Source: Limisphaerales bacterium (GTDB lineage Bacteria; Verrucomicrobiota; Verrucomicrobiia; Limisphaerales; UBA11358). From it: 37,403 bases of DNA. This document shows positions 3,101 to 34,635 of this stretch, one piece after another. A program made the position numbers and the translations under genes. The notes beneath the pieces are model-generated. The model was not told where the DNA came from, ran no database searches, and saw nothing but the letters and a program-made list of their open reading frames with translations. The stretch is taken from the NCBI GenBank assembly GCA_043749955.1, contig JAYVCM010000134.1, forward strand, positions 1 to 37,403, given 5' to 3'. How positions within the stretch are numbered: position 1 is the stretch's first letter; every line of letters starts with the position of its first letter.

Positions 3101-3460
3101 AAGCACGCGCGCGCGGATGAAGTCTGGCTGCGGCTGCACCTCGGCCCGAAATCTTTCACGCTCGCCATCGAGGACAACGGCTGCGGGCTGGGGGCGGACG
3201 ACGAGTTGCGAGCTGGTGAGTTGAGAGTTGAGGGTTCGGACGCTCAACTCTCAACTCACGGAACTCTCAACTCCAAAGCCGCCCGCCGCCTCAACTCCGG
3301 TTCGGGCCTGGAGAACATGAAGAAACGGCTGGCCGCCGTGGGTGGCCGCTGCGAGATCCACAGCGATGCGGGACGCGGCACGCGCGTGGAGATGACCGCC
3401 GCCCTCCGCCCTGGGGCATCGCCAGTTATGGCGATTGGCGGCAGTGAAACACCGGGGTAG
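119..3460 (+). CDS. Sensor histidine kinase with periplasmic two-component-regulator propeller repeats and Y_Y_Y domain, one TM, HisKA_3-type dimerisation domain and HATPase domain
   Basis: ORF 101..3460. First ATG is at 119, followed by a hydrophobic signal/TM segment. Repeated 'DG.LW.GT..GL' propeller motifs. TM segment FQIIAGVLLVAAVSF. H-box ERDRARIAKDIHDDVGAGLT. N-box VKEALNNIVKHA. G-boxes DNGCGL ... GSGLENMKKR. Start codon is uncertain (TTG 101, ATG 119 or ATG 131). Confidence 0.9.
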   Translation: MISPMRRRNFSSLLRHGFAVGLPAWLLFFSAPKSAAAPVDYLVDKWDTEDNLPSSTVTSIAQTPDGYLWVGTYNGLARFDGARFETFDPVNQPALGQARVQALFLDANGTLWINTFRGGLTSYRQGVFRNEWPNQPAFDLHTTLVSSSSNQITFVTQFGEVLRRDLAATNAGWNIAAPPPETRPIFQCADGAGRLWFLARDRHILQFSDGRFQALADDGGLAGSRIYTLVADAAGKIWAGAENEIAVWDGRLFLAMTPTNGATDIQPQSLFPTRAGAMWVLDGERLRKMSGREWVAEAAPWRGLLGAASGRAMGAHEDRDGGWWFNHYGNGLFHITPEGQFQRLTSRENLPSDRVGAWFQSRDGGVWAGVDHGGLVRLHDRRFQVIGVNEGLPVRTALSVCEDAEGVIWIGTAGGGLCRWTNGVVTRFAVGRSVAADFVFAIAPRPGGGAWLSAAAGEDLYQFQNGQVRRASWELHGIKSMLTDRRGRVWMGTKNGIGFSDGNERHILGTNESGTLPAVRALAEAPDGTVWAGADNGTLFRCEPDKLTAFRPEDALAEQPIYSLTADAEGVVWAGTFRGGLLRFKNGEFSRITARQGLPADIISQILEDRRGRLWLGTHQGIYCVAKAALDAIADGRVPLGAGLDYVAYGRHDGLPALECSDGYQPASWRGANGKLWFATVSGVVAINPEEATAKSPPPPVIIEELRVDGEVVKLHEEGGGKMEDGPRPRTYPASSLHPPSAPIRIPPGRKQLDFRFTALSFDAGDKARFRYRVDGLDTDWVDVDTRRTLQLRNLAPREYRLRVIACNSEGAWNLDGAALTFAVRPFFYQTLAFQIIAGVLLVAAVSFGVRRAATRKYRRKLARLEQQHAIERDRARIAKDIHDDVGAGLTQITLLTELARREPEQTDANLERISDSARTLTKAMDEIVWAVDPQHDTLDGLVDYISAYAEDFLRVAGIRCRMDFPMNLPTTRVEAELRYNLFLVVKEALNNIVKHARADEVWLRLHLGPKSFTLAIEDNGCGLGADDELRAGELRVEGSDAQLSTHGTLNSKAARRLNSGSGLENMKKRLAAVGGRCEIHSDAGRGTRVEMTAALRPGASPVMAIGGSETPG
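3216..3259. repeat. Heptamer-arm hairpin (AGTTGAG/CTCAACT family), copy inside the kinase CDS
   Basis: Perfect 17-bp arms GTGAGTTGAGAGTTGAG (3216..3232) and CTCAACTCTCAACTCAC (3243..3259) around the loop GGTTCGGACG. Further CTCAACT-like units extend to about 3299. Translated in frame as GELRVEGSDAQLSTHGTLNS. Confidence 0.9.
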
Positions 3461-10300: not shown

Positions 10301-11091
10301 ACGGCGCGTCACCGCTCACGCTCACGGCGGCGAACACTTACTCCGGCACCACCACGATCAGCAACGGCTCGCTCGCGCTCGTCGGCACGGCCTCGATTGC
10401 CAGCAGCACGGCGATTGAAATTGAGGCGGGCGCGGTGCTCGATGTCATCGGTCACACCGGCGGCTCCATCACGCTGGCTTCCGGCCAGACCTTGCGCGGC
10501 AACGGCACGGTCAGCGGCAGCGTCAGCGCACCGGCGGGCAGCACGGTTTCGCCCGGCGTCGGCGGCATCGGCACGCTGACCATCACGAACACCCTCACGC
10601 TCGGCGGCACGACGCTGATGGAGGTCAATCATGACGTGGTGCCCACACGCGACCAGCTTGTGGCGACGAACATCGGCTTCGGCGGCACGCTCACCGTGGT
10701 CAACACCGGCTCGGCGCTGGTGCTGGGCGACTTCTTCAAATTGTTCGTCGGCGCAAACTCCGGTTCGTTTGCGATCACCAATTTGCCCGCGCTCGATCCG
10801 GGGCTGGCTTGGACGAACACGCTCGCGTTGAACGGAACCATTTCCGTCGTCGCCGGCCCGTCGGTCAACACGGCTTCGACGAACATCACGTCCGTCGTGA
10901 ACGGCGGCAATTTGGAATTGAGCTGGCCGGCGGATCACACCGGCTGGAAATTGCAGGCGCAGACCAACACGGTGGCCGACGGACTCGGCAACAACTGGGT
11001 GACGATCCCCGGCACGGACACGGTGAATCATTACACGAACACGCTTGACCCGGCGAAGGGTTCCGTGTTCTACCGCATGGTGTATCCGTGA
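4333..11091 (+). CDS. Giant secreted autotransporter-associated beta-strand-repeat (PATR-type) protein, 2252 aa
   Basis: Signal peptide MKTKLARIVSRSLGLCLLAGTTALHA. Dozens of '(V/L)TKTGxGTLTLxxxNxYTGxTxVxxGxL' repeats. No C-terminal beta-barrel is recognisable. Ends in a module shared with the next gene (...SWPADHTGWKLQAQTN...NWVTIPGT...FYRMVYP). Confidence 0.9.
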   Translation: MKTKLARIVSRSLGLCLLAGTTALHAADGAWTTDGDGNWSNVANWNSGAGPIADGSGGTASFINPITVGRTVTSDTARTIGNLVFTGSAALNWTLTNSAALTLATGSGISTITVSSNTATFNASGAGLAGAQTVLKNGSGILSLAWNNTYSGGTVIGEGRVNLATVNSGQFGTGSITITNNSILSLIRADTTDSSSVVGSLTNALVVPAGQTATLLSHPRGSITGTLTGGGTLNFRVNATRGDLNGNWSAFAGQINVTARTGADDFRLLNGNGFGNAKLNLGAGVNMQQQFNPPNTTPFTTFQGIGELSGSGNLQGQPVSGRFVNWVIGGLNTDSTFSGPIQNNTGASAVTKTGTGTLSLSANSPFTGGMLVSTGAVYGVTGGSFSNSLITVASNAAFGAAQFGVKVNSAGGQWTGTNLVLRSGSALAFNFGTVAPSTTVPPLKLLGGITSTNTVTVNVLGGAGWLAGTSYPLASYASNYVGNGFSAFALGSQPLRVSGSLSNDTVNSQIWYVVSAVNTPLKWAVGNANWDIATTANWQDAANVSATYQEQLGLGDQVLFNDSASGSSPITVTLNTGVTPASVTFSNVAKNYILAGTSNILGSTSITKTGAGTLTIQNTNSFTGAVSVNGGTVNFSKLGNLGNGTAINFGGGALQFASGNTADISARTVTINSGGATIDTAGNNVAFASRIGNSGAGGLTKTGAGTLTLNTNSTYTGNTTVSQGTLALGAVASLSNSAAVTVSAGTTLDASATGFGFNLNGTGGQMLAGNGAVSGAVTTAGGAKLSPATNGTIGTLTFNNDLTLNGGTFNLDVNNGSRDLIAVSGFLNLNATVSGTVQINALALLTLNSTNKIFQYPAGQLTGGGVSTLSLAVSGVAQSGRLLTLDNSVDGEIDLVVHAAPANNLTWFGDGGANAWDVSSANWTGATNIYSDGDNANFTDAGAANSPVNISPSAVTPNSVTFNATLPYTITGAKITGPATVTKTNSGTVILANVGNDYGMTVIKAGTLQIGDGSTAGTAIGQGTVTNNASLIFNQPDNSQVLGDINGTGSLGKQGAGTLTLLGNNTYAGATTVDTGVLSIGSGGTGGTLGAAAVTLSTGGTLDLNHSGTYTLANTISGDGVLKFDGAATVTYGSGKSYLQNTYINNGVVKLSAANVIPSGGSTTGWLILDGGASTAGSLDLNGVNQSANALSGLGGAVQGRIYNNGSGLNTLTLGTIASTTYAGLILNNTNGGGGVVALTVNGDGSLTTAQTLSGANSYTGPVLINGGSVIMGGGIGTVGQQSIGTGAITLTNGGSLQMNGYGNATQSGNFVNNILVPAGTIGNLKTVGRGNYTGSVTVHGTLNLTTSYIRSTPGGDWSASDGQINIIAGTLGGDVYLNNAGNINWGTAAVDLGAGVAVYNSANTGVNGNTFTIGELTGTGSISDTSAGTAGRVTTYQVGGRNTSATFAGTIFNRTRITAINKVGSGSWTLNGTDSYTGATTVSGGSLIVGPSSFMTASTLITVNSGAVLDVSSYAGLTLAANQTLAGSGVVTGAVVAVVSDILSPGVGTLPGTLSFSNNLTLTGDFVTNNFNLSSDPTGISKTNSQVVVAGDLNVTGSNIVTINALNSILGAGSYTLFKFSGVLMTNGVAAGAGTLENNFNAGGAFPANAHVSLTFSNTGSAVVMIVTPNGNSLVWQGGVFGTATNNWDLNLSTNWHAGATTTNFLNYDSVTFDNTATNFTAVVAGTLAPGAITVGSTNAFTFSGTGKLTGTTGLTKTGTNVLTLSNTGGNDYTGTVTINSGTVKAGSATALGATNGATVISGTGALDVGGQNLGAESVTVSGSGLGGAGAIQNSGAAALNALQYVTLAGDTTFGGTNRWDIRANTNGILAGNNFALTKTSANDIYFVGLGNTALGNLHIEQGRIGVQDSTLLGTGGTLTLFAGSGLDLWNNSVTNTKAISLTNATVSSSSGTNVYGGTINLNGSGTFTATTPLQLNGALAGSGGLVKNGASPLTLTAANTYSGTTTISNGSLALVGTASIASSTAIEIEAGAVLDVIGHTGGSITLASGQTLRGNGTVSGSVSAPAGSTVSPGVGGIGTLTITNTLTLGGTTLMEVNHDVVPTRDQLVATNIGFGGTLTVVNTGSALVLGDFFKLFVGANSGSFAITNLPALDPGLAWTNTLALNGTISVVAGPSVNTASTNITSVVNGGNLELSWPADHTGWKLQAQTNTVADGLGNNWVTIPGTDTVNHYTNTLDPAKGSVFYRMVYP

Positions 11092-11103
11092 TTTGAAATC
11101 ACC

Positions 11104-11139
11104 AATCCCGCGCCAGAAAACTGGCGCGGGATTTTTTTT
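11104..11139 (+). terminator. Rho-independent terminator after the giant repeat-protein gene
   Basis: Stem AATCCCGCGCCAG / CTGGCGCGGGATT (13 bp), loop AAAA, followed by a T run. Begins 13 nt after the stop codon. Confidence 0.85.
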
Positions 11140-11227
11140 GTTTCCGTTGAAGCCGAAGAAGTGACGTGCAATAACCACTCAAGATGTTCTGTAGAAAAAT
11201 CCGAACCAACGGGCTGATGCCGAGGTT

Positions 11228-11289
11228 CCCCCTCATCCGCCCTGCGGGCACCTGCTCCCCCACCGGGGGAGCAGGCTGGGATGAGGGGG
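11228..11289. repeat. Nested GC-rich hairpin repeat (CCCCCTCATCC ... CCTGCTCCCC-loop-GGGGAGCAGG ... GGATGAGGGGG)
   Basis: Outer 11-bp arms at 11228..11238 and 11279..11289. Inner 10-bp arms at 11251..11260 and 11266..11275. Intergenic. Architecture is related to family I. Confidence 0.6.
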
Positions 11290-11360
11290 CACGGTTCGCC
11301 CAACGCGCGCTGCCGGAATAAATGTCGCCCGGTTTTCTAAAAAAAATTCACCGAACCAAA

Positions 11361-13145
11361 ATGAAAAATAAAATTACACGCCTCGGCGTCTTCACCGCGC
11401 TCGCCATTTTTTTGTCCGCGCCGCCGCTTCACGCCGCGGTGGACACCTGGTCCGCCTCGCCCGGCACTTGGGACGTGGGCGTGACGACGAATTGGAACGG
11501 CGGCGCATCCGTGTTCAACAACGGCGACAGCGCCATCTTCAGCAACCTCGGCGCGGCCGGTGCCGGCGCGAGCGTGGTGACGATTGTTGGCACGGTGCAG
11601 CCGGCGGCCACCACCGTCTCCGCGACGGCTGCCAACGTGAACTATACCTTCAGCGGTTCCGGCGTCATCGGCGGCACAGGCGCGTTGCTCAAGACCGGCG
11701 CGAGCACGCTGACCATCAACACCACGAACAGTTACAGCGGCGGCACAACCATCGGCGGCGGCATCGTGCTCGTGACCAACACGGCGGTCGGCCAGTTCGG
11801 CACCGGCAGTATCACGCTCACCAACGGCGGCGCGCTCACACTTTATCGCGCCACGACCACGGACGACGGCAGCACCATCGGCACACTGACCAACGCCTTG
11901 ATTGTCCCGACCGGCCAGACGGGAATCATTTCCAATTCGCCGCGCGGAAACATCAGCGGATCGCTGACCGGCGGCGGCACGTTGAATTTCCGCGCCAACG
12001 CCTCGCGCGGCGACATCAGCGGCAACTGGTCGGCCTTCACTGGGCAGATCAATTTGACGGGCGTCACCGGCGGCAATTTCCGCTGCTTGAACGCCGCCGG
12101 CTACCCGCTGGTGAAAATGAATCTCGCCAACGGCAGCGCGCTGGGCAACCGCGTGGCGGGCGCGCCGGTGATTCCGATTGGCGAACTTTCCGGCGACTTC
12201 AACTCCAGCCTCATCGCGCCGAACACGGGCAACGAAAGTTTGAGCGTCATCTGGCGCGTCGGCGGTCTGAACACCTCGGCGACGTTCAACGGAAATATCA
12301 CCGGCGCGACCGGCCTCATCAAGGAAGGCGGCGGCACTTGGACGCTGGGCGGCACGAACATCACGTTCACAAACACGACGACGGTGAGCGCCGGCACGTT
12401 GACGTTGACCAATACCAGTTCCGCAACCTTGACGAACAGTTCGGTCATCACTGTCAATGCCGGGGCGACCTTGAACCTGGCTGGCCCGGTAAAGGAATTA
12501 AATATCGTCAGCAACCAGACGTTGAAAGGCGGCGGCGTCATCGGTATCGCGTCCGTGACCGTGACCACCGGCGGCACGCTTTCGCCCGGTGATGGTGTGG
12601 GCACGCTGACATTGTCCAACAACACTGTCAGTTCCAGCGGCACCATTCTCATGGAACTCAACCGCACCAATTCGGGGGCGACGAACGATCAGCTTGCTGC
12701 CATCACCATCACCATCAACGGTGGTAAACTTATCGTCACCAACCTCGGCCCGGATTTGCGAGCGGGGGATAGTTTCAAATTATTCAGTGTGGCGATTGGT
12801 GGAAGTGGTTTCACCACTGTGAATTTGCCGACCAATGCCGCGAGCGGCGTCAGTTACACTTGGACGAACAAGCTGACGTTGGATGGAACCATTCAAGTCC
12901 TCACTGCCACCGGCGGCGTGAACACCAACGCGACCAGCCTCACCAGCGTGGTGACGGGAACACAGCTCATCCTGTCCTGGCCCGCCGATCACATTGGCTG
13001 GCGTTTGCAGGCGCAGACGAATTTCCTGTCCACCGGCCTTTACACCAACTGGGTGACGATCCCCGGCACGGAAACGGGCAATCATTACACGAACACGCTC
13101 AACCCCGCCAACGGCTCGGTGTTCTACCGCATGGTTTATCCGTAA
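11361..13145 (+). CDS. Secreted autotransporter-associated beta-strand-repeat protein, short paralog (594 aa) of the upstream giant protein
   Basis: ATG at 11361 gives MKNKITRLGVFTALAIFLSAPPLHA, a signal peptide. The N-terminal module (YSGGTTIGGG...QFGTGSITLTNGG...LTNALIVPTGQTG...GGGTLNFRANASRGDISGNWSAFTGQINL) and the C-terminal module (SWPADHIGWRLQAQTN...NWVTIPGTETGNHYTNTLNPANGSVFYRMVYP) both match the 2252-aa protein. Confidence 0.9.
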   Translation: MKNKITRLGVFTALAIFLSAPPLHAAVDTWSASPGTWDVGVTTNWNGGASVFNNGDSAIFSNLGAAGAGASVVTIVGTVQPAATTVSATAANVNYTFSGSGVIGGTGALLKTGASTLTINTTNSYSGGTTIGGGIVLVTNTAVGQFGTGSITLTNGGALTLYRATTTDDGSTIGTLTNALIVPTGQTGIISNSPRGNISGSLTGGGTLNFRANASRGDISGNWSAFTGQINLTGVTGGNFRCLNAAGYPLVKMNLANGSALGNRVAGAPVIPIGELSGDFNSSLIAPNTGNESLSVIWRVGGLNTSATFNGNITGATGLIKEGGGTWTLGGTNITFTNTTTVSAGTLTLTNTSSATLTNSSVITVNAGATLNLAGPVKELNIVSNQTLKGGGVIGIASVTVTTGGTLSPGDGVGTLTLSNNTVSSSGTILMELNRTNSGATNDQLAAITITINGGKLIVTNLGPDLRAGDSFKLFSVAIGGSGFTTVNLPTNAASGVSYTWTNKLTLDGTIQVLTATGGVNTNATSLTSVVTGTQLILSWPADHIGWRLQAQTNFLSTGLYTNWVTIPGTETGNHYTNTLNPANGSVFYRMVYP

Positions 13146-13167
13146 TCTGAAGCCGCAAAAAATTCAC

Positions 13168-13203
13168 GCGCGCGGTCTGGCGACAGACCGCGCGCTTTTT
13201 TTT
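13168..13203 (+). terminator. Rho-independent terminator after the second repeat-protein gene
   Basis: 12-bp stem GCGCGCGGTCTG / CAGACCGCGCGC, loop GCGA, then T8. Begins 23 nt after the stop codon. Confidence 0.85.
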
Positions 13204-18549: not shown

Positions 18550-19470
18550 TTATTTGCCGCTCGTTCGCGCGATTATGATTCTGGCGCGGTGAGAGTAGTC
18601 CTCCCGCACGGCTTCGACAACCCACTTTTCACTTTCAAAGATTTTTTTTATGGCGTCCGCCTGGCCGTCGCCGAATTCCACCATGATTTTTCCGTCCGGC
18701 TTGAGGAATGTTTTGGCCTCCGCCGCGAGCTTTCGGTAAAAATCCAGACCGTCCGCCCCGCCATCCAGCGCCAGCCGCGGGTCAAAGTCTCGGACTTCGG
18801 GATCCAGCGTGGCGATCTCGGCGGAGGGAATGTAGGGCGGGTTGCTGACGATCAAATCAAAGCGTAGTGGCACAGGCATCTTGCCTGTGAGTTCATTCTT
18901 TGAAACACACAGGCTAGAAGCCTGTGCCACTACCGGCAACGCCGCAAAACCATCGCCGGCTAAAAATTCAATTCTCTCCCCGACGTTGTTTCGCTCGGCG
19001 TTTTCTTTCGCCAGCGCCAGGGCTTCCGTGGAAATGTCCGTGGCAAAAATCTTTGCCTGCGGACATTTCGCCGCGATGGCAATGGCGATGCAGCCGCTGC
19101 CGGTGCAGAAGTCCAGGCAAGTTGAGAGTTGAGAGTTGAGAGTGGAGAGAAACTGCCAGCCAAGCTCCGCAAGCAATTCTGTTTCTGGACGCGGAACAAG
19201 CACTTGGCGGCTCACAGCAATTTCAAATCCGCAAAACGAGGTGGAGCCAATGATGTGCTGGAGCGGTTCGCGCAGGCCGCGCCGCTTGACGAGTTCACGC
19301 AGCCCGTCCGTTTCCGCCGCCGTCAGCGCGCGGTCGAAGTTCAGATACAATTTCATGCGCGGCATCTTGAGCAGGTGCGCAAGGAGCAGCTCCGTTTGGA
19401 GGCGCGGCGACTCGACATTTTTCTTGCCGAGAAAATCGGTGCTTTTCTGAATCGCTTCGAGGACGGTCAT
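18550..19470 (-). CDS. prmC: Release-factor glutamine N5-methyltransferase (HemK/PrmC), carrying two in-frame repeat insertions
   Basis: MTVLEAIQKSTDFLGKKNVESPRLQTELLLAHLL... is the HemK N-domain. SAM motif LDFCTGSGCIAIAIA. NPPY motif DLIVSNPPYIPS. The ATG at 19470 overlaps the stop of the upstream ORF6N gene (ATGA). The 110-aa upstream extension in the track is not credible. Confidence 0.92.
   Translation of the reverse strand: MTVLEAIQKSTDFLGKKNVESPRLQTELLLAHLLKMPRMKLYLNFDRALTAAETDGLRELVKRRGLREPLQHIIGSTSFCGFEIAVSRQVLVPRPETELLAELGWQFLSTLNSQLSTCLDFCTGSGCIAIAIAAKCPQAKIFATDISTEALALAKENAERNNVGERIEFLAGDGFAALPVVAQASSLCVSKNELTGKMPVPLRFDLIVSNPPYIPSAEIATLDPEVRDFDPRLALDGGADGLDFYRKLAAEAKTFLKPDGKIMVEFGDGQADAIKKIFESEKWVVEAVREDYSHRARIIIARTSGK
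18864..18933. repeat. Family G palindromic element (GTAGTGGCACAGGC ... GCCTGTGCCACTAC) inside prmC
   Basis: 70-nt element with 13-nt terminal inverted repeats and two internal hairpins (CACAGGC-N5-GCCTGTG). Second copy at 33771..33855 in fabD. Translated as VVAQASSLCVSKNELTGKMPVPL. Confidence 0.85.
19120..19147. repeat. Solo arm of the AGTTGAG/CTCAACT heptamer family inside prmC
   Basis: AGTTGAG x3 plus AGTGGAG in tandem on the + strand. No complementary arm nearby. Read on the coding (minus) strand as LSTLNSQLST. Confidence 0.8.
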
Positions 19471-25455: not shown

Positions 25456-26382
25456 TCAAAACACCGTGGGCACGCCTTCGTCGAGAATTTTTATCTGCTT
25501 CGTCAGGTTTTCCGCTTCGGCGATTTCCAGGAGCCAGCGTTGCGGCTCGTCCAGCGCCTCGAACGACAGCTTGAACGTCCCGAAGTGCATCGGCACAAAA
25601 ATTTTCGCGCGCAGGTCCTTGAACGCCTGCACCGCCTGGTCCGGCCCCATGTGGACTTTGCGAAAAGTTTCCGGGTGATACGCGCCGATGGGCAGCAGCG
25701 CGATCTCCGGCGCGAGCTTGCGGCCGATTTCCTGGAAGCCGTGAAAATAGGCGCTGTCGCCCGCGTGATAAATTTTCCGGCCCTGATGTTCCAGCATGAA
25801 GCCGCCGAAGCCGCGATGCCGGTCGTGCAGCGTCCGCGCGCCCCAGTGCTTGCTCGGCGTGAACGTCACCTTCCAGTCGCCCGGCGAAAACGTTTCCCAC
25901 CATTCCAGCTCGATGACGCGCGAGAAGCCGAGATTCTGCGCGAGATCGCCGACGCCGCGCGGCATGATGCCGATTTTTGGGTTCGGCAATTTGCGCAACG
26001 TCGGCTTGTGGAAATGGTCGAAGTGCGCGTGCGTGAGCAGCACCAGGTCAATCGGCGGCAGATCTTTGATCTTCAGGCCGGCGCGCTTGATGCGTTTCAA
26101 AAGAAAAATCCAGTTGGCAAAATTCGGGTCAATCAGCACGTTCAAGTCCGTGAACTGGATGAGAAACGACGCGTGGCCGATCCAAGTGATGGCGACCTCG
26201 CCATGTTTCAATTTTGGAAAGACCGGGTGCTTCGAGCGACCGTGGCGCGGCGTGAGCCAGGCCTTCAGGATCAGTTCCTGAAAAAAAGTGCGCGGGTTGA
26301 AATGTTTCGCGGGCGTGAGCTCCTTGAACGAGCGCGGAATTTTCCGGCGCGGCGCGGGGCGTTTTGAAACCGGGCGGTTCAT
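25456..26382 (-). CDS. MBL-fold metallo-hydrolase (NAPE-PLD/UPF0173-like)
   Basis: ITWIGHASFLIQ...NVLIDPNF...DLVLLTHAHFDHF pattern. Ends 17 nt upstream of the membrane-protein start, so the two are probably in one operon. Confidence 0.85.
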   Translation of the reverse strand: MNRPVSKRPAPRRKIPRSFKELTPAKHFNPRTFFQELILKAWLTPRHGRSKHPVFPKLKHGEVAITWIGHASFLIQFTDLNVLIDPNFANWIFLLKRIKRAGLKIKDLPPIDLVLLTHAHFDHFHKPTLRKLPNPKIGIMPRGVGDLAQNLGFSRVIELEWWETFSPGDWKVTFTPSKHWGARTLHDRHRGFGGFMLEHQGRKIYHAGDSAYFHGFQEIGRKLAPEIALLPIGAYHPETFRKVHMGPDQAVQAFKDLRAKIFVPMHFGTFKLSFEALDEPQRWLLEIAEAENLTKQIKILDEGVPTVF

Positions 26383-26642
26383 GCGGGGGGACAGTTCTAC
26401 GCCGCCCGCATATCAAAAGCAACCTGCGAAAAACCGGCGGGGTCTGAAATTGGGTGCGGCCGGGAAGTTTCTTCACGGCTGGCCGGGCAGGAACGATAGC
26501 TGCTTAAAGACCCTGGCAGCCCGGGAACACGCTCAAAATGCCGGTTAAATCGCACTGGAATGGACATCCCGGCGTCCGACCCATGGAAAACAGGACAAGA
26601 ATGAATATGATTTGGGACATATCGCGTCACTCGACGGCACGC

Positions 26643-26706
26643 TGGAGTTCACGCTGGAGTTCAAGCTTTAGCTTGTCCGGCGGCACGCTCAAGCGGGAAC
26701 TCCAAC
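26643..26706. repeat. Family H repeat (GGAGTTC..CAAGCTTTAGCTTGTCCGGCGGCACGCTCAAGCGGGAACTCCAAC)
   Basis: Shares CAAGCTTTAGCTTGT, CACGCT.AAGCG.GAACTCCAAC with 33255..33318 inside fabD. Intergenic here, 58 nt upstream of the kinase start. Confidence 0.75.
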
Positions 26707-26763
26707 TTGCTGATCGCCGTCCCGTCATCTGGCACGCCGCGTGCAGAGACAATTTTTGAAACC

Positions 26764-28872
26764 ATGAAACGCTTCCGCAACCTCCCGATCCAGCAGAAAA
26801 TGCTGGTGATGACCCTGCTCATCTGCGGTGCGGTCCTCCTGGTCGCCATCGTGGCGCTCTTCGTTTTCCAGGTTCTGAACTTCCGCTCCAATTTCCAGCG
26901 CGACACCTCCACGCTGGCGGACATCATCGCCAACCAAAGCAACGCCGCGATGTCGTTTAAGGATGTCGAGACCGCGACCGAGGTGTTGGGATCCCTGCAG
27001 GCCAAACCCACGGTGTTGTCCGCAGCACTCGTTTTACGCGACGGATCGGTTTTCGCCCACTACGGAATCCAGGAGCAACCCGACGCGCTGGCAAAATTTC
27101 CGCGGCCGGGTGAATACCGTTTCACCGGCGGCCATCTGCTGTTCACGCAGCTGGTCATAGTGAAAAAGGAGCAGGTGGGCACGCTTTACCTGCGGACGGA
27201 TTATCAGCGGACGTTTCTGGAACTGCTCGGTTTCTACGGACAGGTCATCTTGGGCGTCACGGTGGTGTCCATCGCCCTGGCGGTGTTTCTTTCCGGGCGG
27301 TTGGGGCGCACGATTACGGAACCGGTGCTCCAACTGGCGCAGGTCGCCAAAATTGTCGGTGAAAAAAAAGACTACTCGGTGCGGGCGGTCGTGAGCAACC
27401 GGGGCGACGAACTGGGCCGGCTCGCGGAATCGTTCAATGAGATGCTGGGCCGCATCGAAAGCCAGGACGCCGCGTTGAGTTTGTCGCAGCAGAAAATGGA
27501 GGCGTTGATCCACTCGATTGACGGCATCGTCTGGGAACGCACGCCGGACACGTTCGAGTTCACTTTTATCAGCCGCCAGAGTGCCATGATGCTGGGTTTT
27601 TCGCCGCAGGCGTGGCTGGACCGGCCGAAATTCTGGGAGGAAAAACTGCATCCGCAGGACGCCGCCAAGGCGATTCAGACGGGTCACGAGATGGCGATGC
27701 GGGGTGAGCCGTATAGTTATGAATACCGGATGCTCGCCGCCGATGGCCGGACGGTCTGGATCCGGGAGAGCGGCATGGTGCTGGTGGAGAAAGGCCGGCC
27801 CGTGGCCATGCGCGGCATTTTCCTGGACATCACGCAGCAAAAATTGGCCGCCGAACAATTGGACAAGCTCAACCGGCAGTTGATTGACACCTCCCGAAAC
27901 GCCGGCATGGCCGACGTGGCCACGGGCGTGCTGCACAATGTCGGCAATGTGCTCAACAGCGTAAGCGTCTCCGCCACGGTGGTGGGCGACCGGTTGCGCC
28001 GCTCCAAGGTCACCAATTTGCGCCGCGCCACGGCCATGATGCGTGAGAAAAACGGCCACCTCGCCGAATTCTTGACGAACGATCCCAAGGGCAAACTGCT
28101 GCCGGATTATTTCAGCACGGTGGCGGAGCAACTGGCCGCCGAGCAGACGGAGTTGATCACGGAAATGGATTCGGTCGGCCAGCACATCGAGCACATCAAG
28201 GAGATTGTGGCGATGCAGCAGAACTACGCCAAGGTTTCCGGCGTCTATGAGAATCTGGCGCCGCAGGAGCTGGTGGAAGATGCGTTGCGCATGAATGTGG
28301 CGGCGTTCGAGCGGCATCGCATCGAGCTGGTGCTGGAGTTCGCCGAGAACCTGCCCAAGGTCTGCGTGGACCGGCACAAGTTTTTGCAGATCCTCATCAA
28401 CCTCCTCCGCAACGCCAAGCATGCCATGGAGGATGGGTGCGAGGAAGACCGGCGCATGGTCATCCGGGTGGGCCTGGCGTCGCCTGGCCGGGTGAAGATT
28501 GTCGTCAGCGACAATGGCCTGGGAATTCCGGCGGAGAATCTCAACAAGGTTTTCAACCACGGTTTCACGACCAAGAAAGACGGGCACGGCTTCGGGCTGC
28601 ACAGCGGGGCCAATGCCGCCAAGGAAATGGGCGGCAGCCTTACGGCCCACAGCGACGGCCCCGGCAAGGGCGCGGAATTCACGCTGGAACTGCCGACGAG
28701 CCAGTTGAGAGGTGGTGAGTTGAGAGTTGCGCAGCCAGTTGAGAGTTCGGACTCTCAACTATCAACTCACAAAACTATCAACTCATCGGAACCCTCCAGC
28801 TCTCAACTCTCAACTCATAAACCTCTCAACTCGCAGACAACCCTCAACTCACCCAGCTCTCAACTCTTATGA
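26764..28872 (+). CDS. Sensor histidine kinase (CHASE8-like periplasmic domain, HAMP, PAS, kinase core) with a repeat-encoded C-terminal tail
   Basis: ATG at 26764 gives MKRFRNLPIQQKMLVMTLLICGAVLLVAIVALF. HAMP segment ITEPVLQLAQVAKIV...ELGRLAESFNEML. PAS segment IDGIVWER...YEYRMLAADGRTVWI. H-box VATGVLHNVGNVLNS. HATPase segment NLLRNAKHAM...DNGLGIP...GHGFGLH. The last 55 aa or so are encoded by the CTCAACT repeat. Confidence 0.9.
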   Translation: MKRFRNLPIQQKMLVMTLLICGAVLLVAIVALFVFQVLNFRSNFQRDTSTLADIIANQSNAAMSFKDVETATEVLGSLQAKPTVLSAALVLRDGSVFAHYGIQEQPDALAKFPRPGEYRFTGGHLLFTQLVIVKKEQVGTLYLRTDYQRTFLELLGFYGQVILGVTVVSIALAVFLSGRLGRTITEPVLQLAQVAKIVGEKKDYSVRAVVSNRGDELGRLAESFNEMLGRIESQDAALSLSQQKMEALIHSIDGIVWERTPDTFEFTFISRQSAMMLGFSPQAWLDRPKFWEEKLHPQDAAKAIQTGHEMAMRGEPYSYEYRMLAADGRTVWIRESGMVLVEKGRPVAMRGIFLDITQQKLAAEQLDKLNRQLIDTSRNAGMADVATGVLHNVGNVLNSVSVSATVVGDRLRRSKVTNLRRATAMMREKNGHLAEFLTNDPKGKLLPDYFSTVAEQLAAEQTELITEMDSVGQHIEHIKEIVAMQQNYAKVSGVYENLAPQELVEDALRMNVAAFERHRIELVLEFAENLPKVCVDRHKFLQILINLLRNAKHAMEDGCEEDRRMVIRVGLASPGRVKIVVSDNGLGIPAENLNKVFNHGFTTKKDGHGFGLHSGANAAKEMGGSLTAHSDGPGKGAEFTLELPTSQLRGGELRVAQPVESSDSQLSTHKTINSSEPSSSQLSTHKPLNSQTTLNSPSSQLL
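28703..28867. repeat. Expanded AGTTGAG/CTCAACT heptamer-arm element at the kinase / hybrid-kinase junction
   Basis: Core hairpin AGTTGAGAG-TTCGGA-CTCTCAACT at 28737..28760. About 4 AGTTGAG units to the left and about 8 (C/A)TCAACT units to the right. Runs up to the ATGA start/stop overlap at 28869..28872. Confidence 0.85.
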
Positions 28873-30923
28873 CGCCCAACCATCGCATCCTGCTCGTGGA
28901 CGACAACACGAGTATCCACGCCGATTTCCGAAAAATCCTGTGCCCGGACATTTCCGGCTCGGCCGTCATCAATGAGATGGAGGCGGCCTTGTTCGAGGAC
29001 ACCAAGCCGGCGGCGGCGCATACCAGTTTCGAGCTGGACTCGGCGTTTCAAGGGCAGGAGGCGCTGGAGATGGTCAAGCTGTCGCTCGCCGAAAACCGGC
29101 CTTACGCGATGGCCTTCGTGGATGTGCGGATGCCGCCGGGCTGGGACGGCATCGAAACCATTGCCCGCATCTGGGAAGTTTATCCGGAAATCCAGATTGT
29201 CATCTGCACGGCCTACTCGGATTACTCCTGGGAAGACATGCGCAACAAAGTCGGCCAGCCCGACGGCCTGCTCGTCCTCAAGAAACCATTCGACAACATC
29301 GAAGTGCAGCAGATCGCCCACGCGCTGACAAAAAAATGGCTGCTGAATCATCAGTCGGCGCTGCAGATCGCGGATCTGGCGCGGGCGAATGAAAAGCTGG
29401 CGTTGTCGGAGGAGCGGTTCTCCAAGGCGTTTCATGAAAGCCCGCTGCCCAGCGGCATCCAGAGTTTTCCCGACCAACGTTTCGTGGACGTGAACCAGCG
29501 CTTCGCCGAGGTGGCCGGTTACAAACGCGAGGAGATGCTCGGCCGCACGGCGGCGGATTTGTTCCTGTGGGAAAAACCGGCCGCCGCCGATTTGTGGTAT
29601 GAACGCCTGTTGCTGAACGAACTGGTGCGGGATCAGGAGGCGAAGATTCGTCACCAGGCCGGTGACTTGCGGGAGCTGCTGGTCTCGCTGTCGCCCATCG
29701 CGTTGGGCGGCTCGCCCCACATGCTGCTGCTGGCCCAGGACGTCTCGGAGCGCGCGCTGTTGGAGCGGCAGTTGCGGCAGGCGCAGAAGATGGAAGCCAT
29801 TGGCCAGCTGGCCGCCGGTGTGGCGCATGATTTTAACAACATCCTCACGGTGATCCAAGGTCACGCGGGTTTGCTGCAACAGACGCTCAACATCGCCGAC
29901 CCGCAGACCCGGTCCTTGGATCAGATTTCCAAGGCGTCCAACCGCGCCGCCGCGCTCATCCGCCAGTTGCTCATGTTCAGCCGCAAGCAGGTCATGCAGT
30001 TTCGGCACTTGGACATGAATGACACTCTGCGCAACGCGATCAAGATGCTGGAACGTCTCGTGGGCGAACATGTGCAGATTGAATTTCACCCCTCGGCAGC
30101 TTTGCCCGCGGTGCATGCGGACTTGAGCATGATTGAACAAATCGCCATGAATCTGGCGGTCAACGCCCGCGATGCCATGCCCAGTGGCGGACGGATCACG
30201 ATCTCGACCACGCGGGAGTCGGTGCACCGCGCGCCCACGCCGATGGATCCCGAACCCCGCGACGGCGATTACATCTGCCTGACGTTCAGCGACACCGGCA
30301 CCGGCATGGACACGCAGGTGCTCGGCCGGATCTTTGAACCCTTTTTCACCACCAAGCCGGTCGGCAAGGGCACGGGTCTCGGGTTGTCCACCGTGTTCGG
30401 CATCGTGCGCCAGCACGAGGGCTGGCTGGAAGTGGAGAGCAAACCGAATCTGGGCACGACGTTTCGCGCCTATTTTCCCGCGAGCCAGCAGGCGGCGGAA
30501 AAAATCGAGCTGGTGATTGATTCCACTTTGAGCAAGGGCCGGGAAACGGTGCTCGTGGCGGAAGATGAAGAACCGTTGCGCCAGATGGTGGTGCAGGTGC
30601 TCCGCATCCAGGGCTACACCGTGCTGGAGGCCGTGTCCGGCGCGGATGCGCTCGAGGTGTGGGAACGCGCCAACCGGCCGGTGGACTTGCTGCTGACCGA
30701 CATGGTGATGCCCGGCGGCATCATGGGCAGCGAACTGGCGGAACGGCTCTCGAACCAGTGCCCGCACCTGAAGGTGATTTATACCAGCGGCTACAGCCCC
30801 GGCATGGCGGGCCGCGACGCGTCGCTGCTGGAAGGCCGCAACTTCCTGCCCAAGCCCTACTCGATCGGCAAACTCGCGCAGTTCGTCCGCGAATGTCTCG
30901 ACGTGCCGGTGAAGCAAAACTGA
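28869..30923 (+). CDS. Hybrid sensor histidine kinase / response regulator (REC-PAS-HisKA-HATPase-REC)
   Basis: N-terminal REC ILLVDDN...FVDVRMP. PAS region. H-box AIGQLAAGVAHDFNNIL. HATPase NLAVNARDAM...DTGTGMD...GKGTGLGLS. C-terminal REC VLVAEDEEP...LLLTDMVMPG. Confidence 0.92.
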   Translation: MTPNHRILLVDDNTSIHADFRKILCPDISGSAVINEMEAALFEDTKPAAAHTSFELDSAFQGQEALEMVKLSLAENRPYAMAFVDVRMPPGWDGIETIARIWEVYPEIQIVICTAYSDYSWEDMRNKVGQPDGLLVLKKPFDNIEVQQIAHALTKKWLLNHQSALQIADLARANEKLALSEERFSKAFHESPLPSGIQSFPDQRFVDVNQRFAEVAGYKREEMLGRTAADLFLWEKPAAADLWYERLLLNELVRDQEAKIRHQAGDLRELLVSLSPIALGGSPHMLLLAQDVSERALLERQLRQAQKMEAIGQLAAGVAHDFNNILTVIQGHAGLLQQTLNIADPQTRSLDQISKASNRAAALIRQLLMFSRKQVMQFRHLDMNDTLRNAIKMLERLVGEHVQIEFHPSAALPAVHADLSMIEQIAMNLAVNARDAMPSGGRITISTTRESVHRAPTPMDPEPRDGDYICLTFSDTGTGMDTQVLGRIFEPFFTTKPVGKGTGLGLSTVFGIVRQHEGWLEVESKPNLGTTFRAYFPASQQAAEKIELVIDSTLSKGRETVLVAEDEEPLRQMVVQVLRIQGYTVLEAVSGADALEVWERANRPVDLLLTDMVMPGGIMGSELAERLSNQCPHLKVIYTSGYSPGMAGRDASLLEGRNFLPKPYSIGKLAQFVRECLDVPVKQN

Positions 30924-30929
30924 CGGACC

Positions 30930-30998
30930 GTTGAGAGTTTTATGAGTTGAGAGTTGAGGGTTCGGACTCTCAACTCTCAACTCAAATAACTCTCAACT
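30930..30998. repeat. Heptamer-arm hairpin (AGTTGAG/CTCAACT family) between convergent genes; plausible bidirectional terminator or RNA-stability element
   Basis: Perfect 15-bp arms GAGTTGAGAGTTGAG (30944..30958) and CTCAACTCTCAACTC (30969..30983) around GGTTCGGACT, plus partial units on both flanks. Confidence 0.85.
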
Positions 30999-31928
30999 GG
31001 CTCTGGCTTTCAGCCGCGCGGATGAAATTTCCGGTGGATCTCCCGCAGCCGGCTGCCCGTGACGTGCGTGTAAATCTCCGTCGTGCCGATGCTCGCATGG
31101 CCGAGCAGTTCCTGGATCGCGCAAGTCCGCGCCGTGCTCCAGCAGATGCGTGGCAAAACTGTGCCGCAACATGTGCGGCGTGATGTTGCGCCCGATGCCT
31201 GTGCGGCGGACGCGGTTCTTGATGTGCAGCCAGAGCGTCACCGCCGCGAACGGCGTTCCGCGCTTCGTCAAAAAAACATTCGCCGGAGATTTCGGCGTGA
31301 CGAGTTTCGGACGGCCGGTCTCGATGTAACGGTTCAACGCCGCGACCGCTTTTTTTCCCACCGGCACCACGCGCTCTTTGTTGCCCTTGCCGATGACGTT
31401 GATGAAGCCCGCGTCCAGATGCAACTGCTCCAGCCGGATGTTTTTCAGCTCGGACAATCGCAGGCCCGAGGCGTAGGCCAGTTCCAGAATCGCCTGGTCG
31501 CATAAATTTTCCCTGGTCTCCGGCAATTCCGGCGCGAGCAGTTTTTTTATTTCGTCGTTCGACAGCGCCTTGGGCAGACGTTTCCAGCGGCGCGGCAGCG
31601 AAAGATTTTCCGCGAGGTTCGCCGGCAGCAGTTTTTCGTTCTCGGCGAATTTGTAGAACGACCGCAGCGCGGCGATTTCCAGATACACGCTTTCGCCGCT
31701 CAAGCGCAGGGTGGATCCCCTGGGTGCGTCGGCGGGCGGGCGGGCGCGCTCGTGTTGCAGGAACGCCATGAGATGTTTTAGCTCGACCGATTTCCAGTCC
31801 GTGAGAGTTTGCGTCGCCGCCCACGCGGTGAATTTGCCGAGCAGAGCGGCGTAGGTCCTGGCCGTGTTGTCCGCCTGCCCGCGCTCGTGGCGCAGGCATT
31901 GCAGAAAATCTTCCACGAGGTTTTGCAT
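30993..31928 (-). CDS. xerD: XerD/XerC-family tyrosine recombinase, apparently frameshifted before the catalytic His/Tyr block (possible pseudogene)
   Basis: ATG at 31928 gives [30 protein letters not shown], the N-terminal SAM-like domain. ...[21 protein letters not shown] then loses the frame. The family sequence [35 protein letters not shown] continues in another frame and ends at 31010. Confidence 0.8.
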
Positions 31929-32017
31929 CACGGCAGTCCGGCGGCGGGCAAATTTTTTGTGGTGGCAGCCATGCGGCAATGTTGGCAGCGCGCCGGACGG
32001 ATGAGAATAAAAATCAT

Positions 32018-32202
32018 GGTAGGGCGGCGCTGCCGCGCCGCCCAAATTTCCCCGCCAGAACAAGCGCAGCGATGTTCTGGCCTGCGGGATTGACGCGCGC
32101 TGGTTCCGTCCAGCCACGCTGCGCGGGCTGACGGGGGAGAAATGGGCAGAGCGGCAGCTCTGCCCTGCCAAAATTGGTAGGGCGGCGCTGCCGCGCCGCC
32201 CC
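32018..32202. repeat. REP cluster (BIME-like) downstream of the RAYT gene
   Basis: Palindromes GGGCGGCGC-TGCC-GCGCCGCCC (32021..32043 and 32179..32201) and GGGCAGAGC-GGCA-GCTCTGCCC (32144..32165). Confidence 0.85.
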
Positions 32203-32206
32203 AATT

Positions 32207-32686
32207 TCAATCCGCCGACCAACGGATTTCATGCACGCGTCCGAAATAAGGCCAGTCCTCCGGTCGCTCCGCCAGCTTGTGCCGGACGGGATTGTCCCGG
32301 ACGTATTGCCGTTTCTGCGCGTAACTTTCGCCATCCCGCAGGCGATGATGAAAACCGCCGTCTTGAAAAATTCCCGTGTCCGGCTGCGACTTGGCCAGGC
32401 GGTCTTTCCAAAAGGCGATCCCGCGTTCGATGGTGAATTTCCAATCCCGCGGCGCGCAGAACAGATGCAGATGATCGGGCAGCAGCAGATAATCACTGAC
32501 CAGCCAGGCGGTGGCCTTGTGTTCCCAAATCTCATGCAGCGCCCGCTGGACGGATGCCTGCGCCAGCCAGCGGTCCCGTTTCGCGGTGCAGACGGTGAGA
32601 AAAACCCAGTTCGGACCGCCGGCGGAAACGTGAACGCCCTTCGCCGGCGTGTGTCGTCCCGGTTCGTGGAAAGGGATTTCGGACAT
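32207..32686 (-). CDS. REP-associated tyrosine transposase (RAYT; IS200/IS605 TnpA-like Y1 HUH enzyme)
   Basis: HUH motif LLLPDHLHLFCAP. C-terminal catalytic Tyr context RQYVRDNPVRHKLAERPEDWPY. 159 aa. Flanked on both sides by REP palindromes. Confidence 0.85.
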   Translation of the reverse strand: MSEIPFHEPGRHTPAKGVHVSAGGPNWVFLTVCTAKRDRWLAQASVQRALHEIWEHKATAWLVSDYLLLPDHLHLFCAPRDWKFTIERGIAFWKDRLAKSQPDTGIFQDGGFHHRLRDGESYAQKRQYVRDNPVRHKLAERPEDWPYFGRVHEIRWSAD

Positions 32687-32762
32687 GGCGAAATTTTTAG
32701 CGGAAGGCGGACGAAGGGAAAAGTTTTTTCGTCACGCGTTCAAAGCGCGTGACGGGAGAAAT

Positions 32763-32951
32763 GGGCGGAGCGGCAGCTCTGCCCTACCAAATGTTGGTGG
32801 TAGGGCGGCGCTGCCGCGCCGCCCAAACTTTCCCGCCGGAACCAGCGCAGCGAAGTTCCGGCCTTCGGGTTTGACGCGGACTGATTCCGTCAGCATCGCT
32901 TCGCTGGCTGACGGGGGAGAATGGGGCAGAGCGGCAGCTCTGCCCTGCCAA
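32763..32951. repeat. REP cluster (BIME-like) upstream of the RAYT gene
   Basis: GGGCGGAGCGGCAGCTCTGCCCT (32763..32785), GGTAGGGCGGCGCTGCCGCGCCGCCC (32799..32824) and GGGCAGAGCGGCAGCTCTGCCC (32925..32946). Confidence 0.85.
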
Positions 32952-33014: not shown

Positions 33015-34067
33015 ATGAGCAAAACCGCACTCCTGTTTGCCGGCCAAGGCGCGCAAGTCATCGGCATGGGCAAAGACCTCGCCGAAAAATTTCCATCCGC
33101 CCAGGCGTGGTTCGACCGCGCCAATGCCGCGCTCGGCTACGACCTCGCCGGCATCTGTTTCCATGGCCCGGAAGCCGACCTGACGAAAACCGAAAACGCC
33201 CAGCCGGGAATTTTCCTTGTGAGCTGGGTCTGCTTTGAGTTGCTCAAGGAGCGCGTTGGAGTTGGAGCTCAAGCTTTAGCTTGTTCCGCCGCAGACACGC
33301 TAAAGCGTGAACTCCAACTGAAATTTGACGCCACCGCCGGTTTGTCGCTCGGCGAATTCACGGCGCTCACGGCGGCGGGTGCGATGAGTTTTGAGGACGG
33401 ACTGCGCGTCGTGCGCCAGCGCGGAAAATTCATGCAGGAAGCGTGCGACGTGACCAAAGGCGGCATGGCCGCGATCATCGGTCTCGACGAAACGCTGACG
33501 CGCGAAGTTTGTGCCGAAGCCGGAGTGGTGCTGGCGAATTTGAATTGCCCCGGCCAGCTTGTCATTTCCGGCGAGGCGGAAAAAATTGTGAAGGCGTGCG
33601 AACTCGCCAAGGCCAGGGGTGCGAAACGCGCGCTGCCGTTGTCGGTGGCGGGCGCGTATCACTCACCGCTCATGGCCAGCGCGCAGCCGAAGCTCGCGGC
33701 GGAACTGGCGAAAACAAAAATTTCTTTCCCTCTCGTGCCGGTGATTTCAAATGTGACGGCGCAGGCTCATGTAGTGGCACAGGCTTCCAGCCTGTGTGTT
33801 GCTGATGGGGCGGTTGCGGCGACAGGAACTCACAGGCAAGATGCCTGTGCCACTATTTCCGCGCGGCTCGTTGAGCAAGTTTGTGCGTCAGTGCGCTGGG
33901 AAGAATCCATGCGTGCATTGCTGGCGCAGGGTTTTACGCGGTTCATCGAACTCGGCCCCGGCACGGCGTTGAGCGGTTTCATGAAGCGCATTGATAAGAC
34001 CGCGCAGATGCTGAACGTGTCGGATGCGGCGAGCTTGGAGGCGACGGCAAAAACTTTGAACGGTTAG
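33015..34067 (+). CDS. fabD: Malonyl-CoA:ACP transacylase, carrying two in-frame repeat insertions
   Basis: MSKTALLFAGQGAQVIGMG, nucleophile elbow GLSLGEF, RGKFMQEA, MAAIIGL, LNCPGQLVISG, AKRALPLSVAGAYHSPLM. At 350 aa it is about 40 aa longer than typical FabD. The 122-aa upstream extension in the track reads through REPs. Confidence 0.93.
   Translation: MSKTALLFAGQGAQVIGMGKDLAEKFPSAQAWFDRANAALGYDLAGICFHGPEADLTKTENAQPGIFLVSWVCFELLKERVGVGAQALACSAADTLKRELQLKFDATAGLSLGEFTALTAAGAMSFEDGLRVVRQRGKFMQEACDVTKGGMAAIIGLDETLTREVCAEAGVVLANLNCPGQLVISGEAEKIVKACELAKARGAKRALPLSVAGAYHSPLMASAQPKLAAELAKTKISFPLVPVISNVTAQAHVVAQASSLCVADGAVAATGTHRQDACATISARLVEQVCASVRWEESMRALLAQGFTRFIELGPGTALSGFMKRIDKTAQMLNVSDAASLEATAKTLNG
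33255..33318. repeat. Family H repeat inside fabD
   Basis: GTTGGAGTTGGAGCTCAAGCTTTAGCTTGTTCCGCCGCAGACACGCTAAAGCGTGAACTCCAAC. Termini GTTGGAGTT/AACTCCAAC are inverted. Matches 26643..26706. Translated as VGVGAQALACSAADTLKRELQL. Confidence 0.8.
33771..33855. repeat. Family G palindromic element inside fabD
   Basis: GTAGTGGCACAGGCTTCCAGCCTGTGTG ... CTCACAGGCAAGATGCCTGTGCCACTA. Both ends match the reverse complement of the prmC copy. Translated as VVAQASSLCVADGAVAATGTHRQDACAT. Confidence 0.85.
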
Positions 34068-34508: not shown

Positions 34509-34635
34509 TCGCGAAGCGTCTGGACTGCGTCCGCTTTTGCGACGCTTTCGTGCGGGCGAAAGCTCACAAACTTTCAACCGTCCCGGTGCGCATCAAAAGC
34601 GGTGCTGAAGCATCCGCAGTCCAGACGCTTCGCGA
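34509..34635. repeat. Long structured inverted-repeat element between convergent genes
   Basis: 21-bp perfect arms TCGCGAAGCGTCTGGACTGCG (34509..34529) and CGCAGTCCAGACGCTTCGCGA (34615..34635). Inner arms CCGCTTTTG/CAAAAGCGG. Central hairpin GCTTTCG-TGCGGG-CGAAAGC. Confidence 0.7.

Follow-up and report, generated by a model that had tools for sequence, protein, structure and literature searches.

In-frame palindromic repeats in two loops of the fabD gene of Limisphaerales: probable REP-type insertions in an essential enzyme

How does the gene of a small essential enzyme come to contain, in frame, two different DNA repeats that also occur elsewhere around it, and does the enzyme still work? 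The question is raised by a stretch of 37,403 nucleotides from a Limisphaerales bacterium (contig JAYVCM010000134.1, hereafter the window), in which fabD (33015..34067, plus strand), encoding an acyl carrier protein (ACP) S-malonyltransferase of 350 residues, carries two palindromic doublets found by repeat search and folding: element H (33255..33318, plus strand) and element G (33771..33855, plus strand). In all likelihood, both are non-autonomous elements of the repetitive extragenic palindrome (REP) type, or of the type of the inverted REP doublets called REPINs, which inserted in frame in two loops of FabD and are tolerated by the enzyme.

The host gene was assigned from the TIGR00128 model, solved FabD structures and an AlphaFold2 (AF2) model. 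Its product scores 293.1 bits against TIGR00128 (equivalog cutoff 260.9), even though the inserts break the match into three stretches, and FabDs in the PDB match it with a best E of 4.5e-57; the HMMER alignments leave residues ~83-103 and 252-280 of the query unmatched. The nearest insert-free orthologs (e.g. P0120, from locus L164) have 309 residues, 41 fewer, and are 94% identical to this FabD once the inserts are masked. At the first site VPN is replaced by VGVGAQALACSAADTLKRELQ (residues 81-101), a net gain of 18 residues, and at the second GTPAE is replaced by VVAQASSLCVADGAVAATGTHRQDACAT (residues 253-280), a net gain of 23.

On its sequence, G reads as a GTAG-tagged REP doublet with head-to-head hairpins. 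Its layout in fabD is GTAG-TGG-CACAGGC-TTCCA-GCCTGTG, a spacer and CACAGGC-AAGAT-GCCTGTG-CCA-CTAT, the inverted arms (~30-33 nt) being 85% complementary with 18 nt between them. The 7-bp stems (CACAGGC/GCCTGTG) and 5-nt loops (TTCCA, AAGAT) fall within the range of the GTAG-tagged REP superfamily (stem 5-13 bp, loop 2-20 nt; PMC3733652). The tag stands at 33771-33774, and the right end is degenerate (CTAT, = ATAG). As in a REPIN hairpin, the minimum-energy fold pairs the two inverted REPs across a short spacer (DNA fold -32.8 kcal/mol, z -7.7 versus shuffled sequence), and a variant of G at the related locus L161 (Gl) is a perfect doublet.

The second copy of G in the window (18864..18933, minus strand) encodes VVAQASSLCVSKNELTGKMPVPL and lies in frame in prmC/hemK (18550..19470, minus strand), the gene of a release-factor glutamine methyltransferase (Pfam PrmC_N, 7e-20, and MTS, 1e-14; PDB 4DZR, 5.6e-37), whose alignment to 4DZR is interrupted at the copy, just ahead of the NPPY motif. 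The G arms of fabD are 97-100% complementary to this copy, with four matches to 14-mer in 0/100 shuffles; the copy is tagged at both ends (GTAG at 18864-18867, CTAC at 18930-18933) and folds at -30.6 kcal/mol (z -10.6). For G, as for H, only 2/6 reading frames are free of stops. The two genes enter G in the same frame, and the second arm is read as ...TGKMPVPL in prmC versus ...HRQDACAT in fabD, because the shorter spacer in prmC puts this arm in another frame.

Element H has what appears to be the same two-hairpin doublet architecture as G, and this architecture is all that it has in common with tagged REPs. Its layout is GTTGGAGTT(GGAGCT)-CAAGC-TTTA-GCTTG, a spacer and CACGC-TAAA-GCGTG-AACTCCAAC, that is, two 5-bp hairpins within outer arms GGAGTT/AACTCC; the copy in fabD contains an additional 6-nt GTTGGA duplication. 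A second copy (26641..26706, plus strand; nhmmer E 1e-16), with its left arm duplicated in tandem, is intergenic, located between an open reading frame (ORF) on the minus strand (25456..26382) and a histidine-kinase ORF, upstream of the latter. The two copies fold at -18.8 kcal/mol (z -4.6) in fabD and -20.2 kcal/mol (z -4.3) in the intergenic region.

To place the two inserts among relatives, 281 FabD sequences, 72-99% identical to the query, were compared; they came from metagenome-assembled genomes (MAGs) of Limisphaerales (Verrucomicrobia subdivision 3) from soil, peat and freshwater and from metagenomes. Nucleotide comparisons were made on alleles other than P0001-P0005, the closest alleles with both inserts, and a metagenome scan recovered no relative above 85% identity. 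Neither insert is present in 123 of the 281 proteins, H alone in about 67, G alone in 31, H together with G in at least 11, and a distinct palindrome at site 1, K (GTCCAAAGTCCAAAG...CTTTGGACTTTGGAC), alone in 10; the rest show nearly every other combination of site-1 and site-2 states. Both sites are empty in 116/152 unique species-level sequences, and the empty motifs, VP-NLK at site 1 and H-GTPAE-I at site 2, are present clade-wide; the insert-free state would therefore be ancestral in Limisphaerales. Among the genome records that contributed Verrucomicrobia-type fabD loci, several (L002, L012, L026, L031, L042, L046, L049, L053, L068; GTDB, binchicken bins) bear the title 'uncultured Bifidobacteriaceae bacterium' or else 'Bifidobacterium sp.', while those of L034, L052 and L061 bear the names Sulfotelmatobacter, Methylomirabilota and Acidiferrales; mislabelling or contamination of the bins is the probable cause.

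These comparisons bear on most of what the preliminary description of the locus had proposed. Its central claim, that two different repeat elements lie in frame in fabD, is borne out by the alignments to PDB structures and orthologs and by the repeat copies in the window, H in an intergenic region and G in prmC just as it had reported; the ortholog alignment that it proposed finds both segments missing from the 309-residue proteins. Its sizes of about 21 and 25-28 extra residues were right about the presence of extra segments and slightly too large as net gains. Its placing of H immediately before the Ser elbow holds in the sequence only: the insert ends 8 residues ahead of Ser111, at the far end of the beta-strand that enters the elbow. 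That the peptides derive from dispersed repeats rather than from an ancestral domain agrees with the predominance of empty sites at species level and with the further copies elsewhere in the window and at loci of relatives. Orthologs sharing the segments as conserved protein sequence would have spoken against it; the segments are indeed common in orthologs, but what is conserved in them is the nucleotide arms, third codon positions included, and the spacer is variable.

Repeat families other than H and G occupy the same two sites. At site 2 of L003 (10706-10757) and L120 stands a fourth palindrome, M (TGTAGTG...GACGCTACAA, with GTAG/CTAC tags), inserted cleanly one or two codons from the position of G. 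K was seen only within fabD by single-sequence nhmmer, and profile searches found K arms elsewhere; for M, profile searches of ~2 Mb of related loci found no copy outside fabD, and it is called a repeat family because of its palindromic GTAG...CTAC form alone. The variants of G at site 2 are named Gr, Gg and Gl, and short remnants such as ESNRQDACAT are also present. In L098 and L099 the ancestral flank is intact and H is a clean insertion of 60 nt, of which 58 nt are the element; the remaining H alleles have one common junction, at which 12 nt of flank are missing. All G-type alleles share the junctions CAT/GTAGTGG...CCACTA/TTTCC (slashes mark the borders), and within these identical junctions three stem sub-families are found (CACAGGC, CACGGGC and GACAGGC). 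Element identity and junction type together thus imply at least five independent insertions into the two loops; as far as sequence can tell, repeated colonisation of these loops has involved at least four families (H, K, G and M) and at least five junction types.

The distribution of these states over the fabD gene tree is close to random. On a neighbour-joining tree, 23 Fitch changes were observed at site 1 against a mean of 27.8 with shuffled tips, and 12 against 12.7 at site 2, counts that are qualitative only, because they come from a single 849-nt gene with synonymous sites near saturation. The scatter suggests that inserts were repeatedly gained and lost or that alleles recombined. Recent recombinational spread of an insert-bearing fabD segment was rejected as the cause of the arm conservation described below: over the ten codons on each side of H, divergence at four-fold degenerate sites is 0.27 and 0.40, equal to that of empty alleles (0.29 and 0.40).

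Could the inserts be artefacts of assembly across repeats? Short repeats can yield chimeric joins in metagenomes, but dozens of assemblies made independently, in different projects and from different samples, show the same in-frame junctions, with allele-specific spacers and flanks, which leaves this explanation barely conceivable.

Copies in other genes point beyond fabD. Outside it, the ~2 Mb of related loci gave 7 hits to G, 14 to H and 8 to K, and 37 hairpins related to those of G. In-frame copies were found in thymidine phosphorylase at L089 (503 bits, the insert splitting the match) and in a PFOR-like ORF of L075, and the hisC (histidinol-phosphate transaminase) ORFs of three species contain a K-arm peptide, (S/P)(L/P)KSKVQSP, at the same position (L020:10365-10394, L076:17929-17952, L152:14005-14030); like fabD, hisC may thus have a hot spot for repeats. 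With several in-frame hits in real genes, the decoration of housekeeping genes by in-frame REPs thus characterises the clade, as it does Opitutus terrae.

Whether the interrupted fabD is a working gene was judged from its backbone, its reading frame and its surroundings. The backbone shows a ratio of nonsynonymous to synonymous substitution (dN/dS) of 0.07-0.18 at dS 0.5-0.9, also between alleles that all bear inserts. The catalytic set of FabD comprises the GQGxQ motif, the GxSxG nucleophile elbow, Arg117, His201 and Gln250 (E. coli numbering); in 75 aligned orthologs Q11, S111 (within G109-L-S111-L-G-E), R136, H216 and Q288 are invariant. No stop or frame change in fabD was flagged in 160 scanned loci, despite widely varying insert length. 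In L161 an allele with both sites filled (K and Gl) and a masked backbone 95% identical to that of the window lies within a canonical fabD-ORF-fabG-acpP-fabF cluster, and fabG likewise comes next after the empty fabD of L164. A few kb upstream of fabD in L161, the closest relative with K and Gl, there is also an RVT_1 reverse-transcriptase gene (L161:3765-5285).

A decaying or non-functional copy, with an uninterrupted paralog elsewhere doing the work, would explain the inserts differently. The fabD of the window is not followed by fabG-acpP-fabF, and a REPtron-like region, described below, lies directly upstream of it, both of which would fit such decay. A second FabD-like sequence was found neither in the 37-kb window nor in any 20-kb relative locus, every insert variant is in frame, and the purifying selection, the invariant catalytic residues and the fab cluster around the doubly filled L161 allele all speak against decay, so that we regard this explanation as highly improbable. 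The evidence favours a working housekeeping gene.

In the AF2 model of the window FabD (pTM, the predicted template-modelling score, 0.83; mean predicted local distance difference test, pLDDT, 82.8), pLDDT falls below 50 solely at residues 84-100 and 255-272, both within the inserts, and no ordered structure is predicted for either segment. Insert 1 is modelled between a helix and the strand entering the Ser111 elbow, and insert 2 between a strand and the helix bearing Q288. Foldseek places the model at a template-modelling (TM) score of 0.89 to the E. coli FabD-AcpP complex (6U0J chain A) and of 0.86 to 1MLA, with the two-subdomain FabD/MCAT fold kept. The structure prediction called for in the preliminary description thus puts both segments in low-confidence stretches between secondary-structure elements of an otherwise regular FabD, and of its two alternatives, an enzyme that tolerates both inserts or a further copy of the gene, the first is favoured by this predicted fold together with dN/dS, catalytic residues, reading frame and the L161 cluster.

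A further possibility is that selection favoured the peptides themselves (e.g. for partner binding), the segments being functional protein loops specific to the lineage and their likeness to repeats secondary. The peptides VGVQA.AC..DTLKRELQ and VVAQASSLCV...THRQDACAT do recur in dozens of orthologs, and AF2 models part of insert 2 as an extension of the next helix; but the low pLDDT of both inserts, the hypervariable spacer peptide, the unrelated K and M peptides at the same sites and the many insert-free orthologs do not fit selection for a peptide. Nor do the occurrence of the same DNA in non-coding positions and unrelated genes, the other frame in which prmC reads the second arm, and arm third codon positions as conserved as first and second ones. 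We consider this explanation very unlikely.

The arms themselves have changed far less than the gene that holds them. Among 21 H alleles (210 pairs) the mean pairwise difference is 6.2% in the arms, 28.5% in the spacer and 38.4% at four-fold degenerate sites of fabD; for the right arm of G (25 nt, 11 alleles) it is 10.7%, against 35.4% at four-fold sites. The alleles were chosen by alignment columns, and an earlier estimate with a restrictive regular expression gave the same result. Third codon positions in the arms are conserved like the others (6.7% and 12%), so the constraint is not on the peptide, and the low divergence indicates that it is the DNA sequence which is constrained or homogenised. 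The stems of G also covary: 42 peptides have Q/L and 3 have R/P at the first hairpin, 45 have R/C and 5 have G/R at the second, with no broken combinations, and a Watson-Crick fourth pair is kept in 33 of the 37 related hairpins outside fabD.

One reading of this conservation is that the hairpins have been domesticated in place, their DNA or RNA structure being useful for mRNA stabilisation, for ribosome pausing that aids folding, or for binding of a RAYT (REP-associated tyrosine transposase) or a gyrase-type protein. It gives the inserts the same origin as tolerated REP-type insertion and differs only on their maintenance, with selection explaining why arms ~6x more conserved than neutral sites of fabD, at all codon positions, flank a drifting spacer. 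Flanks without a hitch-hiking signal, the compensated stem changes (Q/L to R/P and R/C to G/R, as well as the outside hairpins that keep the fourth pair) and the very stable predicted RNA hairpins (-54.6 kcal/mol for G and -31.1 kcal/mol for H) agree with it. Yet most orthologs manage without either insert, unrelated K and M elements stand in at the same sites, shortened forms such as the remnant ESNRQDACAT are still present, and gene conversion from family members predicts the same arm conservation. Furthermore, a terminator scan flagged neither the G nor the H hairpin, and no Rfam family matched at either element. We hold domestication to be rather unlikely; most likely, the arms are conserved by homogenisation or re-seeding from other genomic copies, which is favoured over hairpin selection and would also explain the swaps of stem sub-family at identical junctions.

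A related idea, which we regard as unlikely, is that REP-type hairpins preferentially land or are exchanged at the two FabD loops and are kept there by an active process. It is kept in view because at least four families landed within a few nucleotides of each other, because identical junctions hold three compensated stem sub-families, and because the arms evolve ~6x more slowly than neutral sites, the flanks showing no hitch-hiking. Such maintenance could proceed by targeted integration or gene conversion, with REPs homing into existing intragenic REP sites, or by selection on the intragenic hairpin as a structured nucleic-acid element in essential coding sequence.

What could have moved the elements? 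About 330 nt upstream of fabD, a RAYT-like ORF (32207..32686, minus strand) matches NF047646 (REP_Tyr_transpos) with E 1.1e-17 and 64 bits, under the curated cutoff of 80, and contains the HUH motif DHLHLF; Pfam at E <= 0.001 gave no match for it. On both sides it is flanked by a GTAG REP family (GGGCGGCGCTGCCGCGCCGCCC) different from G, as GTAG-GGCGGCGCTGCCGCGCCGCCC and GGGCAGAGCGGCAGCTCTGCCC-TACC. This REPtron-like region (32017-32951) lies between a xerD-like integrase gene and fabD, and in L161 and L163 a Dabb-domain gene stands at its position. A tblastn search with the RAYT-like protein found no homolog in 160 relative loci; the REPtron beside fabD is therefore genome-specific and cannot explain the inserts of relatives. 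The ORF represents a candidate class of mobilising enzyme, and mobilisation of G and H may have been the work of an enzyme of the RAYT type.

Under tolerated REP-type insertion, each element would be read through one of its two stop-free frames and the inserts would be translated as flexible loops of ~21 and ~28 residues, located at the ends of secondary-structure elements, so that the FabD core and the catalytic residues would stay untouched; with core and catalytic residues intact, the enzyme would therefore tolerate the loops. Protein function appears to let insertions through at these two positions only, and after insertion the arms would stay near the family consensus while the spacer drifts.

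Several points weigh against this account. A cognate transposase for G or H was not found, and no RAYT flanked by G was seen. Each of the two elements has only two copies within the 37-kb window, and H carries neither a GTAG nor a CGTC tag: its units start GTTGGAGTT-CAAGC, and its GTTG is not among the degenerate GTAG forms GYAG, GYRG, GTRG and GTMG listed in PMC3733652. The junctions are not those of simple insertions, G replacing 16 nt and window-type H ~9-12 nt, and this loss of flank would call for insertion followed by deletion or for another exact mechanism. The window-type H alleles share a single junction, yet are dispersed across the fabD tree, so that simple vertical inheritance is insufficient. 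Surface exposure of the inserts is a matter of low pLDDT and of their modelled location between secondary-structure elements, and translation of the inserts and activity of the enzyme are inferred.

The phenomenon as such appears to be one already known, its nearest parallels being the intragenic REPs of O. terrae and, in functional terms, the Rickettsia palindromic elements (RPEs). Di Nocera et al. (2013) described REPs that are often arranged as inverted dimers and that form sub-families with alternative complementary stem bases; their intragenic REP dimers encode 20-30 amino acids, some genes hold two inserts, and GTAG-19 REPs are reported within about 70 genes of O. terrae (PMC3733652). 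The elements in fabD are alike in coming from the same phylum, in being GTAG-tagged stem-loops present as inverted dimers in frame in housekeeping genes, in the encoded length of 20-30 residues, in the occurrence of two inserts in one gene, in the compensating stem sub-families and in the peptides themselves. The GTAG-19 peptides HGQDARAT, HGRDARAT and GTGVPPV (Additional file 3 of PMC3733652) are echoed by THGQDARAT, which the fabD insert encodes in its Gr variant (P0036, P0049, P0077 and L004), and by GTGVPPV...GQGARAT in the PFOR-like ORF of L075; G would thus be related to the GTAG-19 REPs, a likeness seen in the peptides, from which the nucleotide identity is deduced. The systems differ in that the ~70 host genes of O. 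terrae do not include fabD, in that the present clade is Limisphaerales (subdivision 3) and in that H is untagged. Added here are presence/absence polymorphism across many species, families that share two hot-spot loops, and the comparison of arm with neutral divergence. New are thus the host gene, the clade, the repeated colonisation of two loops and the slow evolution of REP arms in coding sequence.

The other systems are less close. RPEs, in the summaries of Ogata et al. (2000/2002) given in PMC10969869 and PMC3733652, are palindromes found in frame in unrelated essential genes, where these summaries read them as tolerated insertions compatible with protein fold and function; the resemblance is functional. 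As summarised in PMC10969869 they measure ~150 bp, versus 64-85 nt here, and their hosts are Rickettsia, obligate intracellular alphaproteobacteria. Many RPE copies are old and decaying, whereas the arms studied here are near consensus and relatives show active turnover; RPE families are not known to be related in sequence to G and H. The REPIN-RAYT system (Bertels and Rainey; RAREFAN preprint, 10.1101/2022.05.22.493013) shares with this locus the inverted REP doublet, folding as a single long hairpin, the presence of a RAYT-like gene with GTAG REPs on its flanks and the long persistence of the family sequence. It differs in that REPINs are described as extragenic, whereas both G copies of the window lie inside coding sequence (fabD and prmC), and in that the RAYT-like gene here is flanked by another REP and scores below the cutoff. 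Bacterial MITEs (miniature transposable elements with inverted repeats) within genes (ERIC and others) are likewise small non-autonomous repeats that can make in-frame fusions (PMC10969869). MITEs have terminal inverted repeats derived from insertion sequences and target-site duplications, whereas the elements here are REP-type hairpins; no target-site duplication was found at the clean junctions of L098 and L099, nor at the other junctions, where flank has been lost.

Further repeats were observed in the window. A third palindromic family, with tandem CAACTCTCAACTC / GAGTTGAGAGTTGAG motifs, occurs at 3217-3284, 28728-28877 and 30930-31010; the copies at 28728-28877 supply the histidine-kinase ORF (26707..28872) with its C-terminal tail (…SQLSTHK…), and the ends of ORFs are thus also extended by repeats in this genome. 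Downstream of fabD, between a small ORF and a 765-residue minus-strand ORF, a 40-nt inverted repeat (34509-34548 / 34596-34635; 83% complementary, arms 47 nt apart) may be another palindromic element. Degenerate direct repeats 31-175 nt long (families D1-D8, D10, D12 and D16-D20) are numerous in the long region 4400-13200, which looks like a very large gene of a repeat-rich surface protein.

If H and G are what they very probably are, a small, essential, single-domain enzyme can bear 41 repeat-derived residues in two loops while under strong purifying selection. The inserts lengthen the annotated protein, split its matches to hidden Markov models and, in metagenomes, produce spurious 'conserved' peptide motifs. 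With hundreds of alleles that are empty or hold members of four families, remnants or swapped stem sub-families, the fabD of Limisphaerales is a natural experiment, which may be used to follow the entry and persistence of REPs and REPINs in coding DNA, to find positions at which a protein tolerates insertion, and to weigh selection against gene conversion as the source of REP-arm uniformity.

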